From an uncultured candidatus Porisulfidus sp. (GTDB lineage Bacteria > Pseudomonadota > Gammaproteobacteria > Poriferisulfidales > Poriferisulfidaceae), in the NCBI GenBank assembly GCA_965116025.1, contig OZ220480.1, positions 193,335 through 257,334 of the forward strand: a DNA stretch of 64,000 nucleotides, written 5' to 3'. Numbering within the stretch: the stretch's first letter is position 1; every line of letters starts with the position of its first letter. Shown piece after piece: positions 1,033 through 9,308 of the stretch. The translations under genes were made by a program, and so were the position numbers. The notes beneath the pieces were generated by a model. That model had not been told where the DNA came from. It did not search any database and saw nothing but the letters and a program-made list of their open reading frames with translations.

Positions 1033-1689
1033 TCAGGCCCGCGCGGTCGGCGGCGCGAGCCGTCGGGAGGATATCCCGGGAGCCTCGCCCCGCAAACGCT
1101 GAATCACGGAATCCAAGCCATTCTGGTTGATTTCGGGACGCAGGCTATCTTTCAGGCTCTTGATCAGGAACACCCCGTCGGCGCGAATCTCGAACACGCG
1201 CCACTCGCCCTCGGTCTCGCGCATCAGATAGGTCAGGTCGACCGGCTCCTTGCCCGACATCACGAACTTGGTGCGAACCACTTGGTAGCTCTTGTCTGGC
1301 AGCATCTCGAACGGCAGGTAGCTCACCTTTCCATCGGCGTACTTGAGAATGATCTTCGCGTACAGCTGAAGCAACTGCCGCCTCAGAGAGACGATGAACT
1401 CGCGACGCTTCTCGAAGGACGTTTCCTGGTAGACCTTCTTGCCAAGAATAATTCGCGCGATCCGGTCGTAGTCCAGCACCCCGCCCAGCGTATCACTCAC
1501 GAACCTGTACAGCGTCTCATCGTCGCGCTCGAACTCATCCATTCTCAGACGGATCTGCGACAGCAACTCGTCGCTAACGCCGCGCAACCGGGCCTGCGGA
1601 GAGTCCGCCGCCTCAAGATTTGAGCACGGCAACAGGACGGAGAGCGCGAGCGCGCCCCCGAACAAACGCAGCGATGCAATGCTCGTCAC
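1033..1689 (-). CDS. mlaC: phospholipid-binding periplasmic protein MlaC (Ttg2D family)
   Basis: 218-aa ORF with an N-terminal signal peptide ([21 protein letters not shown]). The body resembles MlaC ([38 protein letters not shown]...GLDSVIQRL). It is directly followed by murA on the same strand, as in mla-murA clusters. Confidence 0.7.
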
Positions 1690-1757
1690 CCTACAGTCTC
1701 GCGCGGATCAAGTGAGGAATTATAGCAAGTCGGGCGTGGTCGGGAGTGCCATTTCTA

Positions 1758-3527
1758 ATGCCATTGGCGCTATTGGCGGCGGGGCTTTCGGCGCTGGCGC
1801 TGCCGGCGCGGGCGGAGACGATCAACCTGTACGGGTGGCAGAACCACTCGTGGGAGTTCGTGGACATCGACGGCGGGCGCAGCTTCGACCGCATCCAGTC
1901 GAACGCCGGGAACATCGGCTTCTCGGCCAGCGTGGACACTGGCATGAGCGACATAAAGGTGAACCTGCAGTGCGAGCAGTTCACCTACTACAACCACTTC
2001 GCCGGCGGCACCGGCTGGTGCAACCGCAACTCCAAGATCGGGCTGGCGCACCCGATGGCCGGCGAGATCATGTTCGCCACCTGGCTGCTGCCGTACAACG
2101 AGGGCGTGGCCCAGTGGGTGGACCCGTTCTACGACGCCGGGGCCGACTCGCACACCAGCATCATGGGCTCGGTCGGGGCCAACACCATCTTCTACAACAC
2201 CGGCGACTTCGACCAGCAGGCGTCGGCGTCGGGGCCGGCGACCGGCTTCTCCGGGGCGGAGTTCAACTACGCCGGGGCCGGCTACGACACCGGCTTCAAC
2301 CGGCGCCAGGAGAACATCATCCAGTACTGGTCGCCGAACTGGAACGGCTTCGTGTTCCGCTTCGCCTGGACGGCCGGCAACCGCGACGAGACGAACGCGC
2401 CGACCGGCGGCGGGAAGATCGACCCGGTGATCCGCTCGAGCAGCCTGGCGTACACGAACGGCCCGCTGTGGCTGGCGGCGACCTGGCAGGACCACGAGGA
2501 CTGGACGGCGGTCTCGGTCGGGGAGATGGAGAGCTCGGACGCGGAGAGCTTCCGCCTGGCCGGGCGCTACATCATGGACCTGGGCGACGGCATGAGCGTT
2601 CAACTGTCGGCCATGTGGGAAACGCTGGAGTACGAGTTCCACGGCGTGACCACCATCGATAAGGCCATGAAGGCGTTCGGGTATGGGAATTTCATGGATT
2701 CTTACGAGTTGAGCGTCACGGATGCGGAGATAATGAAGAAGAAGACCCAAGGGCTGGCGCTCGATATCTTGACGGATGAGAAGGGCATGCTGATTCCTAT
2801 GGGGGACACGGCGCGGGGTTTATATGGGGAGCAGGTTAAAACCACTATGAGCCTGTACACCGCATACATGGGTGAGATAGACACCGTAACCTCCACCAGC
2901 TTGAACTTGGTCGCTGAACGCAGAACTGTGGTCGACTGGAACGACTATTACAAAGAGGCGCCTGATAATCCTGTTAAAGTCAGCACTACCGCCATGCGAA
3001 CCGGGTCCCAAAATGTCATGCTTTTCACGACCATGCTGAGCACGACTACGCTGAACGCGGCTAAAACGGCCGCGGAGGAGGCCAAAATGAAGGATATGGA
3101 TGATCGAACGGACGAGGACAAATCGAAAATCAAGTTCTATGACGATCTGGTCTCGATGGCGAAATCCCGAGCCCGCGACGAGAAGAGCATGGGCGGGAAC
3201 GTGAAGATCGAGCGAGACGCCTGGATGGTGTCGGGCAAGATCAAGTTCGGCGGCCCGCTGGACTTCCGCTTCTCCTACATGGACGCCGACGACCTGGAGC
3301 TGTCATGCAACTACTGCATGGGAGACTGGGACGAGACGGCGGCGGACGCCTGGAACGTCGGGGTGTTCTACACGATGCCGGCGGGAACCGAGCTGCGGCT
3401 GACGTATTCGGAGGTCAACAACGACGACAACGGGACCTACGGGCAGGGCATCTCGGGGACCGGCTTGGGAACGCCGGGGGCGGAGATCGAGATGTTCGCG
3501 CTGGGGATCGTGCACTGGTTCGACTGA
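1758..3527 (+). CDS. porin-like secreted/outer-membrane protein, family copy 1 (N-form A, cassette type X)
   Basis: ATG at 1758 with GGGAG 11 bp upstream (the ORF track starts at a GTG at 1746). Signal peptide MPLALLAAGLSALALPARA followed by ETINLYGWQNHSWEFVDIDGG. The conserved N and C frameworks are shared with 7 paralogs, with alternating hydrophobic beta-strand-like patterns and a terminal ...EIEMFALGIVHWFD. Confidence 0.8.
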   Translation: MPLALLAAGLSALALPARAETINLYGWQNHSWEFVDIDGGRSFDRIQSNAGNIGFSASVDTGMSDIKVNLQCEQFTYYNHFAGGTGWCNRNSKIGLAHPMAGEIMFATWLLPYNEGVAQWVDPFYDAGADSHTSIMGSVGANTIFYNTGDFDQQASASGPATGFSGAEFNYAGAGYDTGFNRRQENIIQYWSPNWNGFVFRFAWTAGNRDETNAPTGGGKIDPVIRSSSLAYTNGPLWLAATWQDHEDWTAVSVGEMESSDAESFRLAGRYIMDLGDGMSVQLSAMWETLEYEFHGVTTIDKAMKAFGYGNFMDSYELSVTDAEIMKKKTQGLALDILTDEKGMLIPMGDTARGLYGEQVKTTMSLYTAYMGEIDTVTSTSLNLVAERRTVVDWNDYYKEAPDNPVKVSTTAMRTGSQNVMLFTTMLSTTTLNAAKTAAEEAKMKDMDDRTDEDKSKIKFYDDLVSMAKSRARDEKSMGGNVKIERDAWMVSGKIKFGGPLDFRFSYMDADDLELSCNYCMGDWDETAADAWNVGVFYTMPAGTELRLTYSEVNNDDNGTYGQGISGTGLGTPGAEIEMFALGIVHWFD

Positions 3528-3549
3528 CCCGTTGGGTCATCCACGACAG

Positions 3550-3582
3550 CGAGCGGGCGCCTTCGGGCGCCCGCTTTCTTTG
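3550..3582 (+). terminator. rho-independent terminator of copy 1
   Basis: AGCGGGCGCC-ttcg-GGCGCCCGCT followed by TTCTTT, 23 bp after the stop codon. Confidence 0.7.
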
Positions 3583-4062
3583 AGGATCAGGATTCTCGAC
3601 TTGATCCGCCGCCACGAGGCAAATCGTGATGATGGCGGATCGCGAGAGCCAGATGTAACCGCTTCGGATGGTCGCGCGGGCGCTTGGAGTGATGCCACGA
3701 AAGCTGTGCGGGGCGTTCCGGCTTCAGGCTTTCATCAAAGATCGGAAACTCGATAGTTCCAGAGATCGATAGGCTGACCCCTGTTCGTCGCCACGCGGGA
3801 AGTCTGCTTGATCGAGGACGACGGGCCTCTCACCCTCTTTCCTCCCCGAGGCGCGCGCCGATCCACGCCCTCCGATTTCTCACCGCGTCTCTTATATCCA
3901 AGCGATATCAAGAATTCTCAGTCCACCGCACCACCTTGTGGTGGATCGGGTCATCCCGATCCGGTCTGCCGCGAGCGGATCGCCTTCCGGGCGCGTCGGA
4001 ACCAGGCCTCGCGCCGCCGGCGCTGGCCCGACTCTCGATCTGGTCGCGAAGCGCCGACCTCA

Positions 4063-4095
4063 AAGAAAGCGGGCGCCCGAAGGCGCCCGCTCGCT
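4063..4095 (-). terminator. rho-independent terminator of copy 2
   Basis: Mirror image of the same GC hairpin plus T-tract on the minus strand, immediately 3' of the convergent paralog. Confidence 0.7.
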
Positions 4096-4115
4096 GTCGT
4101 GGATGACCCAACGGG

Positions 4116-5947
4116 TCAGTCGAACCAGTGCACGATCCCCAGCGCGAACATCTCGATCTCCGCCCCCGGCGTCCCCAGGCCGGTCCCCGAGATGCCCTGC
4201 CCGTAGGTCCCGTTGTCGTCGTTGTTGACTTCCGAATACGTCAGCCGCAACTCGGTTCCCGCCGGCATCGTGTAGAACACCCCGACGTTCCAGGCGTCCG
4301 CCGCCGTCTCGTCCCAGTCCCCCATGCAGTAGTTGCACGACAGCTCCAGGTCGTCGGCGTCCATATAGGAGAAGCGGAAGTCCAGCGGGCCGCCGAACTT
4401 GATCTTGCCCGACACCATCCAGGCGTCCCGCTCGATCTTCACGTTGGAGCTCATGGTTTGCTTCAGCTTGGCGTCGGCGTATTCCGTCATCTTCTTCTCG
4501 TACTCCATCACCTTCTCGTTGTGCGGCTCCAGGGCGTACTCCCTCGCCTTCGCCACGTATTCCTTGTAGAAGTCCATGTCCGTCTTGTCATCCAGATACT
4601 TCGTGGTCGATGTCTTCAACTTGTTCAGGATCGTGGTGCTCAGCTTGGTAGTCAGGGCCGCTTTGTACGCCGTGTTCAATCCCCCAGTGGTGAACCTGTA
4701 GTAGCGATCGATCGCTGGGATGTTCTGATAATTACTCCAACTTTGATTATCGAAGTATTTTTTATAGGACCCCCCGTATCACTAGGACTTAAGTCGGTGG
4801 GCCATACGGCCAGACCGGCCATGTTGGTCCTCCATTTCCCGTTCTCGTCCGTCAGCAGCTCGACCGCGAGCCCCCCGGTCATCTGCGCCTCTATCAGCGG
4901 CTTCAGCTCCGCTTCGGTGGGCATCGTCGGCTTCGTCGGCATGTCCATGTCGGCGGGGGCCATGACCTTCATGTCGTAGTAGGTTTTCTCGAAATGGTTG
5001 ATGTTGGGATCGGTACCGCCGTACCCGAACGCCTTCATGGCCTTGTTGATGTCGGTCACGCCGTGGAACTCGTACTCCAAAGTCTCCCACATGGCCGACA
5101 GTTGAACGCTCATGCCGTCGCCCAGGTCCATGATGTAGCGCCCGGCCAGGCGGAAGCTCTCCGCGTCCGAGCTCTCCATCTCCCCGACCGAGACCGCCGT
5201 CCAGTCCTCGTGGTCCTGCCAGGTCGCCGCCAGCCACAGCGGGCCGTTCGTGTACGCCAGGCTGCTCGAGCGGATCACCGGGTCGATCTTCCCGCCGCCG
5301 GTCGGCGCCATCGTCTCGTCGCGGTTCCCGGCCGTCCAGGCGAAGCGGAACACGAAGCCGTTCCAGTTCGGCGACCAGTACTGGATGATGTTCTCCTGGC
5401 GCCGGTTGAAGCCGGTGTCGTAGCCGGCCCCGGCGTAGTTGAACTCCGCCCCGGAGAAGCCGGTCGCCGGCCCCGACGCCGACGCCTGCTGGTCGAAGTC
5501 GCCGGTGTTGTAGAAGATGGTGTTGGCTCCGACCGAGCCCATGATGCTGGTGTGCGAGTCGGCTCCGGCGTCGTAGAACGGGTCCACCCACTGGGCCACG
5601 CCCTCGTTGTACGGCAGCAGCCAGGTGGCGAACATGATCTCGCCGGCCATCGGGTGCGCCAGCCCGATCTTGGAGTTGCGGTTGCACCAGCCGGTGCCGC
5701 CGGCGAAGTGGTTGTAGTAGGTGAACTGCTCGCACTGCAGGTTCACCTTTATGTCGCTCATGCCGGTGTCCACGCTGGCCGAGAAGCCGATGTTCCCGGC
5801 GTTCGACTGGATGCGGTCGAAGCTGCGCCCGCCGTCGATGTCCACGAACTCCCACGAGTGGTTCTGCCACCCGTACAGGTTGATCGTCTCCGCCCGCGCC
5901 GGCAGCGCCAGCGCCGAAAGCCCCGCCGCCAATAGCGCCAATGGCAT
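4116..5947 (-). pseudogene. porin-like family copy 2 (N-form A, cassette type Y), frameshifted
   Basis: ATG at 5947 (MPLALLAAG...). The reading frame breaks near 4680-4800, giving two overlapping ORFs (4676..5947 and 4116..4679). Both halves are homologous to the intact copy 4. Low-complexity odd sequence sits at 4740-4800. Confidence 0.6.
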
Positions 5948-6171
5948 TAGAAATGGTATCGTAGGGCATCAGCAAATCGAAAAACTCTCCACGGAATATC
6001 TGGCCAAAACGTCGCTTCTCCCATATATTGTTCGGTGAAATTCCGCCTCCCAAACTCTCGATTTCCGTTCCCTAGATTCCGCATTGAATTGCGGCACCAT
6101 TTCCTTTGTGGGAAAATAAGACGCTATGGGACGGGATTATCAATGTTGGCAAGGAAACCGGGAGAGGGTTG

Positions 6172-7395
6172 ATGAGAGGAACTAGAGTCCCACCGCGAAT
6201 CGAGCGATTAAAGGTGCAGAACTTCCGCGCGTTGCGCGATGTGGAGCTAAACCTTACGCCGCTCACCGTGTTACTTGGCCCAAATGGCAGTGGAAAGTCC
6301 ACGATTTTTGATGTCTTCGCCTTTTTGGCAGAGTGTTTTGAGAGCGGGCTACGTCGAGCGTGGGAAAAACGTGGCAAAGCTCGGGAACTTAGGTCGCGGG
6401 GCGGAGAGGGTCCTATATTGATTGAAATCGCATATCGCGAAAAACCGCGCACACCCTTGATCACGTATCACCTTCAAGTGGACGAGAAAAATGGCCGACC
6501 TCGCGTGGTCTGCGAATGGCTCCGATGGAAGCGGGGGCGCTACGGGCAACCGTTCAAATTTCTCGATTACGCGGACGGAGTTGGGCAGGTCATCTCGGGT
6601 GAGATGCCTGACGCGCGGGCTGAGCGGATAGAGATCCCTTTGAGTTCTCCTGATACGCTCGCGGTTAACGCGCTTGGCCAACTGGCGGAAAATTCTCGTG
6701 TCGTCGAGCTGAGAGATTTCATCATGGGATGGCATGTGTCCTACTTGTCAGCCGAGGATACGAGAGGACAACCGGAAGCGGGGCCACAGGAACGCCTGAG
6801 CAGGACAGGAGACAATCTCGCTAACGTGATTCAATATCTGTCCGAAGAACATCCAGAACTTTTGGAGTCCATTCTTGGCAGCATCAGAGAAAGGATCCCG
6901 AAAGCCCAGAGCGTGGTGGCGGACCAGATGCCGGACGGAAGGTTGTTGCTGAAAATCAAGGATGCCCCATTCGCTGACCCCGTCATGGCGCGCTTCGCGT
7001 CCGATGGCACACTTAAAGTGCTCGCCTATCTAGTCTTGTTGCGTGATCCAACCCCTCCTCCTTTTATTGGCATTGAGGAGCCGGAGAACTTCCTGCATCC
7101 ACGCCTGCTTCACGGTTTGGCGGAAGAATGCCGAACCTCCTCCGAGGCCACACAGGTCCTCGTGACCACCCATTCTCCTTTTTTCCTTGATGCGCTTCGT
7201 CCCATGGAAGTTCGGGTGTTGTGGCGCGACGAATTCGGTTACACGAGATGCGACCCCTTGGATGAGAACAAAAAAATTTTGGCGTTTATGGAAGCGGGCG
7301 CCCAGCTTGGAGATCTTTGGATGGAAGGACATTTCGGGGTTGGAGATCCGCTGACTTCGGAAGGAATGGCCATGCCGGGAAGAGGCGGGAGCTGA
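6172..7395 (+). CDS. OLD/ABC-type (AAA_21-like) ATPase
   Basis: Walker [10 protein letters not shown] near the N-terminus. Walker B/D-loop [13 protein letters not shown] and H-loop LVTTHSPFF near the C-terminus. ATG at 6172 is preceded by GGGAGAGG (the ORF track begins at 6106). Confidence 0.7.
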
Positions 7396-7396
7396 C

Positions 7397-8014
7397 ATGC
7401 CCGCGTCTCATTTGGAGTTCCTCGTGGAGGAGCGTTCCATGGAAGCGTTTCTCGTTGCTTGGCTACCAAAGTTTCTGCCGGAGGGCTGCACTTTCAAGGT
7501 CTATGCGCACCAAGGCAAAAACGCGTTGTTGAGAAAAATCGAAGATCGACTCGGAGCATATAAGGCATGGATGCCAAACGAATGTCGTATCGTGGTGGTA
7601 GTGGACCGCGACCGGGATGCGTGCGATGAACTCAAGCTCAAGATGGAGCGATTCTGTGAGAAAGCGGGATTGCGGTCGAGACGGGCCGCTGATGGTTCGG
7701 ACTGGCAAGTGGTGACGCGGATAGCCATAGAAGAGCTTGAAGCATGGTATTTTGGGGACTGGCAGGCGGTGTTGGCCGCTTTTCCGGGTGTCGCGGAGAA
7801 TATCCCAGACCGCGCGGCTTACCGGGATCCAGATGCGATTCAAGGTGGAACTTGGGAGGCATTCGAGCGGATTCTCCAGAAACATGGATATTTCGCGCAA
7901 GGACTGGCAAAAGCGCAGGCCGCTAGCGAGATTGGCCGACATATCGACCCTGTTCGCAATCGGTCCCGCAGTTTTATCGTTTTTCGCGATGCCATCGTCG
8001 ATGCCACCACATGA
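7397..8014 (+). CDS. DUF4276-like (Toprim-like) partner protein of the ATPase
   Basis: Start lies 1 bp after the ATPase stop (translationally coupled). The acidic motifs EFLVEERSMEAF, VVVVDRDRD and IEELEAWYF match my recollection of the DUF4276 consensus; this is not confirmed by a search. Confidence 0.55.
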   Translation: MPASHLEFLVEERSMEAFLVAWLPKFLPEGCTFKVYAHQGKNALLRKIEDRLGAYKAWMPNECRIVVVVDRDRDACDELKLKMERFCEKAGLRSRRAADGSDWQVVTRIAIEELEAWYFGDWQAVLAAFPGVAENIPDRAAYRDPDAIQGGTWEAFERILQKHGYFAQGLAKAQAASEIGRHIDPVRNRSRSFIVFRDAIVDATT

Positions 8015-8174
8015 ACATGCCATAGAAGCTATCGTGTTTCCGCAATTGAAATATCTTTGCTATGGCTATAGGAAAGCCGGTTTTCAGGACCCTCTGACCT
8101 CTGCGGTAAAATAATCGCCCAGCATGATTTTCTGGGCCCGCCGAGCCCGAAGCCGGACTTTCAGGAGACGTTAC

Positions 8175-9308
8175 TTGGCCAAACGCGCGTTGCTCGCTCT
8201 CGAAAACGGCGCGTTGTTTTTCGGAGATTCCATCGGGGCGAACGTCACCGCCATCGGGGAGGTCGTCTTCAACACCTCCATCACGGGCTACCAGGAAATC
8301 TTGACTGACCCGTCGTATTGCCGCCAACTGATCACGCTGACGCATCCGCATATCGGGAACGTCGGGGCGAATGACGAAGACAGCGAATCCGGCGCTCCGG
8401 CGCGCGCCGCTGGCCTGATCGCGCGCGATGTCCCTGCGCGCGCGAGCAACTGGCGCGCCAAGCGGTCTTTAGGGGATTTTCTTGACGAGCACGGACTGCC
8501 TGGGATCGTGGGCATCGACACGCGCCGCCTCACGCGAATCCTGCGCGACCAAGGAGCCCAGTCGGGTTGCCTCACGACCGATGTCTCCGACCCGGACCAA
8601 GCGGTCGATCAGGCCCGCGCGTTCCCGGGGCTAGCGGGAATGGATTTGGCGCGAGAAGTCTCCACGAAGGAGTCGTACGAGTGGGACGAGGGACCTTGGG
8701 GGGCAATGCCAGACGAGCTGCCGCCCGCGCGATATCGAGTTGTGGCTTACGACTACGGGATCAAGCGAAACATTCTCCGCCTCCTGCGCGCGCGCGGATG
8801 CGCGGTCACGGTCGTGCCGGCCAAGACCCCGGCATCCGAGGTGCTGAGCCGGGATCCAGATGGAGTTTTTCTATCCAACGGACCTGGAGATCCAGATCCA
8901 TGCACGTACGCCCGGGACACGATCCGAGAATTGATCCAGACCCGGACTCCGATGTTCGGCATCTGCCTTGGTTGCCAGTTGCTCGGCTTGGCCAACGGAG
9001 CGCGCACGGTCAAGATGAAGACCGGGCATCACGGAGCCAACCACCCAGTTCTCGAGATGGACACGGGCCGGGTTCTGATCAGTAGTCAGAACCATGGTTT
9101 CGCGATTGAGGAAGAGTCTCTTCCAGAATGCCTGCGCTTGACCCACCGCTCGCTTTTCGACGGCACCGTGCAAGGCATCCGGCATGTCGAGGCCCCAGCG
9201 TTCGCTTTCCAAGGACACCCGGAAGCGAGCCCCGGGCCACGCGACTTGGCTGGCTTGTTCGATCAGTTCATCGACCTGATGCGGCATCGCCCCGGACGAC
9301 TTGGTTAA
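8175..9308 (+). CDS. carA: carbamoyl-phosphate synthase small subunit
   Basis: [20 protein letters not shown]...[19 protein letters not shown], and a GATase domain with the GICLGCQLL catalytic Cys. Probable TTG start at 8175 with AGGAG 5 bp upstream (E. coli carA also uses UUG). An alternative ATG lies at 8124. Confidence 0.85.

Follow-up and report, generated by a model that had tools for sequence, protein, structure and literature searches.

HEC-01, for Hma-embedded candidate 01, was described by Payne et al. (bioRxiv 10.1101/2024.01.29.577857), and its second protein, HEC-01B, shares the metal site of OLD (10.1101/2024.01.29.577857). An isolated representative gave its discoverers no protection against either a BASEL subset or classic coliphages (10.1101/2024.01.29.577857). 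By contrast, one HEC-01 representative shielded E. coli B from one or more of T4, T5 and T7, in a study where HEC-01 also came within the top 12 system types by abundance in cold-seep genomes (10.1101/2024.09.26.614923). Later surveys count HEC-01 as unvalidated (PMC12853721). The type is common and its validation is conflicting, with one test showing no protection and one showing some. In the related PARIS system, the ATPase is a scaffold from which the Toprim protein is released (PMC11464382). If HEC-01 is a working defence, it would be a further case of an ABC ATPase sensor coupled to a Toprim nuclease, a design that has been very successful in OLD, Gabija, PARIS, AbiL and MADS3-4.

We analyzed a 64-kb stretch of DNA (64,000 nucleotides, called the window here) from an uncultured marine bacterium. 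Two adjacent open reading frames, both intact and of full length, were found on its forward strand together with their putative ribosome-binding sites:

6160 to 6168, + strand: Shine-Dalgarno-like purine run GGGAGAGGG, 5' of the ATG at 6172, read from the sequence; similarity to related loci starts here
6172 to 7395, + strand: gene A (hec01A), ABC ATPase (AAA_21/AAA_15), 407 aa; its reading frame is open back to a TTG at 6106
7387 to 7391, + strand: Shine-Dalgarno-like site GGGAG for gene B, within the 3' end of gene A
7397 to 8014, + strand: gene B (hec01B), DUF4276 Toprim-fold protein and predicted metal-dependent nuclease, 205 aa

Using the system models of PADLOC-DB v2.0.0, we found that A matched HEC-01A (PDLC04182) with an E value of 2.1e-154 and 512 bits, residues 30-414 of the longest reading frame covering profile positions 2-404 of 406. 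B matched HEC-01B (PDLC04202) with an E value of 1.5e-80, residues 5-202 covering positions 2-199 of 204. Matches this strong cannot be put down to chance. Judged by these profiles, A plus B is HEC-01, a catalogued candidate anti-phage pair. The full-length matches to HEC-01A and HEC-01B agree with the original prediction of a candidate anti-phage system. The accompanying statement that the pairing could not be assigned to a named system from sequence alone is outdated, because both proteins match HEC-01 models end to end and PADLOC-DB v2.0.0 calls HEC-01.

The start of gene A had been placed at 6106. While the reading frame itself is real, the TTG at 6106 is merely the farthest-upstream TTG of a 429-aa open reading frame, and the start is almost certainly the ATG at 6172. 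This is because the purine run lies just ahead of this ATG, family profiles match only from about residue 30 of the 429-aa frame, 82 related loci resemble the window's DNA from 6160 onward, and an identical public protein (P0302) has 407 aa, with homologues of 407-412 aa. The homologues of B have 205 aa, as B does. The junction between the genes is as first reported, with gene B beginning 1 bp past the stop of gene A: the TGA occupies 7393-7395 and the ATG lies at 7397, leaving a spacer of 1 nt.

Protein A carries the motifs expected of an ABC ATPase. GPNGSGKST, IEEPENF and TTHSP, all named previously, were found in the translation, and comparison with homologues added two further conserved stretches:

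6277 to 6303, + strand: Walker A (P-loop) GPNGSGKST, A residues 36-44, with conservation of 97% or more among 74 homologues
6742 to 6816, + strand: A residues 191-215, between the two ATPase half-domains, near-invariant and predicted with low confidence
7000 to 7017, + strand: ABC signature-like SDGTLK, A residues 277-282, picked out by conservation in 74 homologues
7072 to 7092, + strand: Walker B and next residues, IEEPENF, A residues 301-307, with E302 and E303 invariant
7165 to 7179, + strand: H-loop TTHSP, A residues 332-336 (H334), invariant

Seven of the nine Walker A residues, K42 included, are strictly invariant (alignment A2). Within SDGTLK, residues S277, G279, T280, L281 and K282 reach a conservation of 97% or more and D278 one of 80% or more in the 74 homologues; from its position ahead of Walker B, this is probably the ABC signature motif. 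Residues R198, Q200, P201, E202, G204, L209, G213 and N215 of the 191-215 segment also reach at least 97% in the same homologues, and the pLDDT of this segment is 30-48 in the predicted structure. Such a segment may contact the partner or the trigger.

A profile search of Pfam placed A in AAA_21 (E 1.2e-29) and also in AAA_15. A structural model of moderate confidence, built with database homologues of only 75-83% identity as input (pLDDT 73, the other four models reaching 38-52), folds as an SMC/Rad50/OLD-type ABC ATPase head. The fold is ABC and not AAA+, as described for HEC-01A. Both results bear out the proposed resemblance to AAA_21/OLD-class ABC ATPases. A sequence search for a solved structure of A gave P-loop-level matches only. 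Weak matches to RecF, RecN and SbcC over the P-loop, together with the location of the pair among the core genes carAB and greA, raise the question of whether it is a housekeeping factor for DNA repair or chromosome maintenance, with a RecF- or Rad50-Mre11-like ATPase and a nuclease. We regard this as very unlikely. The repair-family matches span only about the first 45 residues of A, and predicted A has a short insert in place of the SMC/Rad50 coiled coil. Furthermore, cross-phylum similarity of 53-83% occurs in unrelated genomic contexts, relatives of the pair sit inside restriction operons, and relatives with a 75% identical MlaC have other neighbors there and no pair.

Protein B matches Pfam DUF4276 over its full length (E 4.7e-26) and not an unrelated family, and about 4,200 clusters (90% identity) match B. 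The DUF4276 family has been assigned to the Toprim superfamily with its Glu and DxD (PMC12065111). The three acidic motifs proposed earlier (EERSME, VVVVDRDRD and EELEAWYF) are all present in the translation:

7427 to 7432, + strand: Toprim glutamates E11-E12 (EERSME), right after strand 1 (residues 5-10)
7604 to 7612, + strand: Toprim DxD, D70-R-D72 (VVVVDRDRD), at the end of strand 3 (residues 63-70)
7730 to 7762, + strand: acidic cluster EELEAWYFGDW, B residues 112-122, after strand 4

B adopts a three-layer alpha/beta fold with four strands in the order b1-a1-b2-a2-b3-a3-b4 that the Toprim superfamily requires. Its first two motifs occupy the positions expected of the Toprim Glu, just past strand 1, and of the DxD, just past strand 3, consistent with the Toprim assignment made at the outset. 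The Glu, DxD and EELEAW residues, E11 and E12 among them, show conservation of 97% or more in 74 close homologous pairs. Among 89 diverse homologues, E11, D70 and D72 are each conserved in at least 90%, and E115, W117 and G120 do not vary across the diverse DUF4276 family. By analogy with OLD nucleases, the EELEAWYFGDW cluster may contribute to a second metal site. Searches for a solved structure of B by sequence, profile search included, found none.

Next, we compared the pair with its relatives. The pairing is obligate: of 82 related loci, drawn from many phyla, 81 have A directly upstream of B in the same orientation, and for 63 of 74 homologous pairs the distance from the A stop to the B start is -4, -1 or +1 nt. 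Divergence of A and divergence of B are correlated (r 0.72), and both genes are under purifying selection (dN/dS about 0.1 for each). The pair has also spread horizontally. Identity across at least eight bacterial phyla is 64-83% for A and 53-77% for B, with many of the hosts being sponge symbionts; DNA similarity among loci is limited to the two genes (6160-8017), and the neighbors change from genome to genome. The subfamily to which the window's copy belongs occurs mainly in uncultured marine and sponge-associated bacteria.

In some relatives the pair is embedded in type I restriction systems. A full-length HsdR gene lies within 10 kb downstream in 14 of the 82 loci, and in eight of these HsdM and HsdS are encoded as well, with hsdM and hsdS upstream and hsdR downstream of the pair (hsdM-hsdS-A-B-hsdR in L063). 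The HsdR proteins of these eight loci are 72-77% identical across phyla, and the restriction system and HEC-01 therefore seem to travel together. Could the pair be a non-autonomous accessory of a methylation-based system (type I restriction-modification, Hma or MADS-like), serving there as a second layer of nuclease, so that the window's copy, its partner system lost, would be an orphan of little or no activity? These eight loci speak for such a role, as do the first discovery of HEC-01 embedded in Hma (10.1101/2024.01.29.577857), the inactivity of the isolated HEC-01 of Payne et al., and the ATPase plus DUF4276 accessory genes Mad3 and Mad4 of MADS (10.1101/2023.03.30.534895; PMC12065111). 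We nevertheless find it improbable. About 68 of the 82 loci lack HsdR within 10 kb and have varied neighbors, yet their genes are intact and dN/dS is about 0.1. In addition, the DNA common to the loci comprises the two genes and nothing else, A reaches 114 bits with MAD3 where the cut-off is 420, and cloned HEC-01 is reported to be protective in E. coli B (10.1101/2024.09.26.614923).

Other neighbors among the related loci include RhuM/Fic, DUF4411/IrrE and further AAA_21 ATPases. Some copies adjoin toxin-antitoxin pairs (DUF433/PIN in L001, IrrE/DUF4411 in L048). This adjacency would suit a selfish toxin-antidote (addiction) cassette in which B is a toxic nuclease, A its neutralizer, and phage defence plays no part, the module persisting because cells that lose it die; so would a compact two-gene unit that is mobile across many phyla without recognizable mobility genes and whose GC content is below that of its flanks in 51 of 68 loci. 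The pair is rare, however, on plasmids (9 of 72,556 records) and has no match in phages (50,697 records), and such scarcity is unusual for an addiction module. Moreover, the ATP-hydrolysis site of A is complete and invariant, so that a regulated sensor fits better than a simple antidote. We consider an addiction cassette quite improbable, and toxin-antitoxin behavior and abortive-infection defence can coexist.

In the window, the pair is flanked by a porin gene (Porin_4) and carA, with carB and greA also nearby. The adjacent porin paralogue is apparently split by a frameshift. No hsd genes were found within the 64-kb window. The pair lies outside any defence island, an observation that we counted against defence. 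The cassette has a GC content of 0.55, and the remainder of the window one of 0.61. It had been described as inserted between mlaC and carA. Its flanking genes were named correctly and its GC content is indeed lower, whereas insertion itself is a supposition. The search turned up no close relative carrying an empty site, and comparison therefore neither dates nor delimits the insertion. In the closest relatives of MlaC (75-77% identical), mlaC lies beside maf/truB/infB and not carA. The best relatives of CarA in metagenome contigs are 64% identical, and exact-match searches with the B protein of the window returned no contig. An imperfect 16-nt inverted repeat surrounds the pair (6084-6099 / 8035-8050). 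Terminal inverted repeats were rejected across 71 loci, the best flank-to-flank match being 7.9 nt against 7.6 nt in shuffled controls, as expected by chance. A search of Rfam over 5800-8400 gave no matches, the spacer between B and carA folds no better than its shuffles (z -0.55), and promoter and terminator scans gave nothing above shuffled controls.

Standing alone among housekeeping genes beside a split porin paralogue, and with promoter and terminator signals at background, the pair might be a horizontally acquired cassette in decay, by now a non-functional remnant. We find this extremely unlikely. Both frames have the full length of their homologues (407-412 aa and 205 aa), the two ribosome-binding sites are preserved along with the coupled junction, and the window's copy keeps every residue conserved at 97% or more in the 74-pair alignments, in which conservation was scored against the window's own sequence.

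We conclude that the locus is probably an intact, solitary HEC-01 module, an ABC ATPase together with a Toprim protein of the OLD/PARIS superfamily, whose likeliest role would be defence against phages or other invading DNA. Its most likely function is a PARIS/OLD-like defence in which an ATPase sensor controls a Toprim nuclease. The proposed course of events would be the following: 1) A and B are co-transcribed and translationally coupled; 2) A self-associates, binds B and holds it inactive; 3) an infection cue, perhaps a phage protein or perhaps an aberrant nucleic acid, shifts the ATP-dependent state of A so that B is released or activated; and 4) B, acting as a Toprim enzyme with two acidic sites (Glu11/12, Asp70-x-Asp72 and Glu113/115), cleaves nucleic acid. 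The target might be DNA, as in OLD and Gabija, or tRNA, as in PARIS. Cleavage would halt phage replication, and the infected cell would probably be sacrificed. Rather unlikely, in our judgment, is that this HEC-01 subfamily is a fully autonomous immune module working differently from PARIS, OLD and Gabija. One possibility is that residues 191-215 of A are a sensor or a latch for B and that B attacks some new target, RNA or DNA. The failed coliphage test in E. coli would then also be explained, by the absence of a trigger or host factor.

Returning to the PARIS/OLD-like sensor and nuclease, we compared the pair with known systems one by one. The PARIS effector AriB is a DUF4435 protein of about 300 aa, whereas B is a DUF4276 protein of 205 aa with no match to the AriB model. 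The AriA model (PDLC02980) matches A with an E value of 1.5e-28 and its best stretch at residues 220-362 only, the match to HEC-01A being stronger by about 125 orders of magnitude. PARIS is typically found on phage satellites and prophages (PMC11464382), whereas the window's family has no match in 50,697 phage records. With no DUF4435 effector and a partial AriA match, membership in PARIS was rejected. In OLD and GajA, a single polypeptide contains both ATPase and Toprim, whereas here two reading frames are separated by a stop codon. Gabija also has the UvrD-like helicase GajB, and no helicase gene adjoins the pair. The Old and GajA models match weakly and partially (E 5e-17 and 6e-16), and for want of fusion and of GajB we rejected OLD class 1 and Gabija GajA. 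Septu was rejected as well: PtuA matches the P-loop only (41 bits, cut-off 500), and the partner is a Toprim protein and not the HNH protein PtuB.

The MADS proteins Mad3 (AAA_21-type ATPase) and Mad4 (DUF4276) resemble A and B (10.1101/2023.03.30.534895), and the PADLOC models for both were matched (mad3, E 1.9e-23; mad4, E 1.1e-05). The immediate neighbors here are the porin gene, carA and carB, in place of a methyltransferase or of mad6-8, which are mandatory in MADS. Membership in MADS was rejected, with A scoring 113.9 bits against NCBIfam MAD3 (cut-off 420) and mad6-8 not beside the pair. In AbiL/RloA-RloB and the NsnC-DUF4276 variants of Menshen, too, a small divergent Toprim protein accompanies an ABC ATPase, and these systems often lie in type I restriction-modification loci, like the eight relatives of the pair (PMC12065111). 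A matches AbiLi (E 4.8e-24) and NsnB (E 3e-18). AbiL/RloAB was rejected with B matching neither RloB (PF13707) nor AbiLii. Menshen is a three-gene system whose NsnA and NsnC are both absent here.

The window's copy itself adds little to what is known of HEC-01. Its value is that of a clean, minimal and well-conserved representative from an uncultured marine bacterium, and we know of no representative tested in the literature that comes from its subfamily. The comparative data narrow the mutation targets and contexts to consider, through the obligate pair, the invariant or near-invariant catalytic residues, the conserved but disordered segment of A, and the relatives found repeatedly between hsdS and hsdR. 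Whereas HEC-01 was discovered inside Hma, a context that its detection does not require, the window's copy stands alone between the porin gene and carA, outside Hma or a restriction system. In composition HEC-01 and the pair in the window agree: in each, the gene for an ABC ATPase (AAA_21/AAA_15) precedes that for a small DUF4276/Toprim protein, and the predicted OLD-like metal site is shared.

The interval is filled by two open reading frames in the same orientation, which encode a predicted ABC ATPase (hec01A, here A) and a DUF4276 protein of Toprim fold, a predicted nuclease (hec01B, here B):

6106-7395, plus strand, open reading frame of A (TTG 6106 to TGA 7395)
7397-8014, plus strand, open reading frame of B (ATG 7397 to TGA 8014), its first base 1 nt past the A stop
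5 bases 5' of the B start, within the 3' end of A, GGGAG ribosome-binding site of B

Every motif cited in the original prediction was found in the two translations. The start of A, placed there at 6106, was corrected to ATG 6172, because positions 6160-6168 form a purine-rich ribosome-binding stretch (GGGAGAGGG), all profile matches start at about residue 30 of the long reading frame, DNA similarity with related loci begins at 6160, and an identical public protein (P0302) has 407 aa. Judged from its sequence, the locus is an intact, coupled operon for an ABC ATPase together with a Toprim protein, both predicted to be catalytically complete.

The Pfam families and PADLOC models that had been proposed as checks were both found. 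A matched AAA_21 (1.2e-29) and AAA_15 (3.1e-20), and B matched DUF4276 (4.7e-26, covering 184 of 192 profile positions). In PADLOC-DB, the two proteins matched end to end the models of HEC-01, a two-gene candidate anti-phage system (HEC-01A, PDLC04182, E 2.1e-154; HEC-01B, PDLC04202, E 1.5e-80). Runner-up system types were much weaker (AriA 1.5e-28, AbiLi 4.8e-24, mad3 1.9e-23, Old 5e-17, GajA 6e-16). These matches support the reading of an ATPase paired with a DUF4276-like Toprim protein, and they supply a name for a pairing that had been thought not assignable to any named system from sequence alone. The pair almost certainly belongs to HEC-01. In NCBIfam, A hit MAD3 only below threshold, at 114 bits where 420 is the cut-off, and B had no match. 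The locus is a routine case of an already catalogued candidate system, one that PADLOC would annotate automatically, and this copy shows no departure from the family.

Relatives of B number about 4,200 among 90%-identity clusters; with 1.84 billion proteins reduced to 50%-identity representatives, the number is 1,216. When one genome was scanned for each species, 459 emerged, and the best 80 of them are 53-74% identical and belong to Gamma- and Alphaproteobacteria, Binatia, Latescibacterota, Acidobacteriota, Cyanobacteria, Chloroflexota, Thermodesulfobacteriota and others. At least eight phyla are represented among the pair's closest relatives (L003-L082), many of which are lineages of sponge symbionts (Ca. 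Poriferihabitaceae, Poriferisocius, Ca. Synechococcus spongiarum, Aphanocapsa feldmannii, Entotheonella), a spread that may stem from gene sharing across the habitat or from the way databases are sampled.

Across 74 pairs, residues at least 97% conserved in A are Walker A G36-T44 except S43 (itself at least 80% conserved), Q170, S277/G279-K282, E302/E303 and H334. Those in B are E11/E12, D70/D72, E112/E113/E115, W117, G120, D121 and D146, and they hold too in a more diverse set of 89 DUF4276 proteins. E11/E12 come after strand 1 and D70-x-D72 lies at the end of strand 3, the exact sites of the Toprim Glu and DxD, which bears out the Toprim-like reading of the acidic motifs of B. Residues 191-215 of A (6742-6816), a stretch with one half of the ATPase head on either side, are nearly invariant, many of them reaching at least 97% conservation over 74 homologues, yet the model has very low confidence there (pLDDT 30-48); speculatively, this segment might contact B or a trigger.

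Comparison of 82 related loci showed that A and B are inherited jointly, are under constraint, have spread horizontally and often lie within restriction operons. In 81 of the 82, B has an A homologue (64-83% identical) directly upstream of it. Of 74 pairs, 63 have a distance from A stop to B start of -4, -1 or +1 nt, a pattern suggestive of translational coupling. Divergence of A tracks that of B (r 0.72). Each gene has a dN/dS of about 0.1 relative to its nearest homologues, with synonymous sites saturated, indicating that the genes are strongly constrained and that transfers were not recent. Nucleotide similarity among loci is confined to 6160-8017, the two genes alone, and no consistent flanking repeats surround the pair across the compared loci. 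Plasmids seldom carry the family, which occurs in 9 of 72,556 plasmid records, and none of 50,697 phage records contains it. One alphaproteobacterial genome holds two pair copies (L016 and L019, both OZ244055.1) within a 4,466-nt duplication of 96% identity, which also spans roughly 2.3 kb of genes upstream, among them DUF1828/DUF1829 and an HSDR_N-like ORF.

Direct neighbours of the pair vary among related loci, and a clear minority are defence genes: among 129, HSDR_N occurs in 11, HsdS in 3 and further AAA_21 ATPases in 7, the remaining defence types being Fic, RhuM or DUF4143. Full-length HsdR lies within 10 kb downstream in 14 of the 82 loci, with HsdM and HsdS as well in 8; gene order in L063 is hsdM-hsdS-A-B-hsdR. 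The pair is inside a type I restriction-modification locus in L063 (5799-13790), L003, L004, L013, L019, L050, L054 and L056, flanked by hsdM and hsdS on its upstream side and by hsdR on its downstream side. For seven of these eight, full-length HsdR is 72-77% identical across phyla (the L004 match covers just 194 residues), which suggests that the restriction system travels together with the pair embedded in it. This embedded arrangement is how HEC-01 came to light in Hma systems (10.1101/2024.01.29.577857). Further small genes, of defence or toxin-antitoxin-like kind, directly precede the pair in L001 (DUF433 and PIN/DUF5615, 5718-6340), L048 (IrrE-like peptidase and DUF4411, 502-2186) and L013 (RhuM/Fic protein, 7492-8499). 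A ribonucleotide reductase small-chain gene occupies 6 of the 129 neighbour positions, probably one locus common to related Latescibacterota genomes.

Upstream of the pair in the window are mlaC and two inverted Porin_4 paralogues; carA, carB and greA lie downstream:

1033-1689, minus strand, mlaC
1749-2686 and 5019-5956, Porin_4 inverted arms, 938 nt, 99% identity
3181-3606 and 4037-4462, Porin_4 inverted arms, 426 nt, 94% identity

Neither hsd genes nor a second copy of the pair occur anywhere in the 64 kb. GC content of the cassette is 0.55, compared with 0.61 elsewhere in the window and 0.62-0.65 in neighbouring carAB. From GC content and patchy distribution, we infer that the pair was inserted between mlaC and carA. 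In two loci with MlaC 75% identical to that of the window (L083 and L084), murA and hisG are kept on one side of mlaC, whereas the other side carries maf, truB and infB where the window has its porins, HEC-01 pair and carAB, which makes this region a synteny breakpoint. The porin genes (1746-5956) form a large inverted duplication, facing each other with differing central parts, a layout through which a surface protein could undergo inversion or gene conversion. The second copy (4116-5947, minus strand) yields two ORFs (4676-5947 and 4116-4679) that lie in different frames and share 4 nt, suggesting a frameshift, pseudogene or assembly error.

HEC-01 membership, constraint and restriction-operon nesting in relatives support the anti-phage role originally proposed, and we consider a defence function likely. 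Payne et al. described HEC-01 as an ABC ATPase and Toprim pair with the OLD metal site, and their representative gave E. coli no protection against their phage set (10.1101/2024.01.29.577857), whereas a cold-seep study reports that a representative conferred protection on E. coli B against one or more of T4, T5 and T7, with no magnitude stated for the system (10.1101/2024.09.26.614923). A later survey still lists the system as unvalidated (PMC12853721). The remaining interest lies only in the mechanism of the HEC-01 family and in its conflicting validation.

Taking PARIS (PMC11464382) and the OLD/Gabija family as analogues, we propose that A would self-associate, bind B and hold it in check; an infection cue would shift the ATP cycle of A, and B, released or switched on, would cut DNA or RNA and stop the phage, probably via abortive infection. 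We offer this sequester-and-release scheme tentatively, as somewhat short of an even chance. Toprim superfamily placement has been published for DUF4276 (PMC12065111), and MADS3-4 are grouped among ABC-ATPase/Toprim systems (PMC11464382). The substrate of B may be DNA or RNA, given that Toprim effectors of the superfamily cut either DNA (OLD and GajA) or tRNA (AriB).
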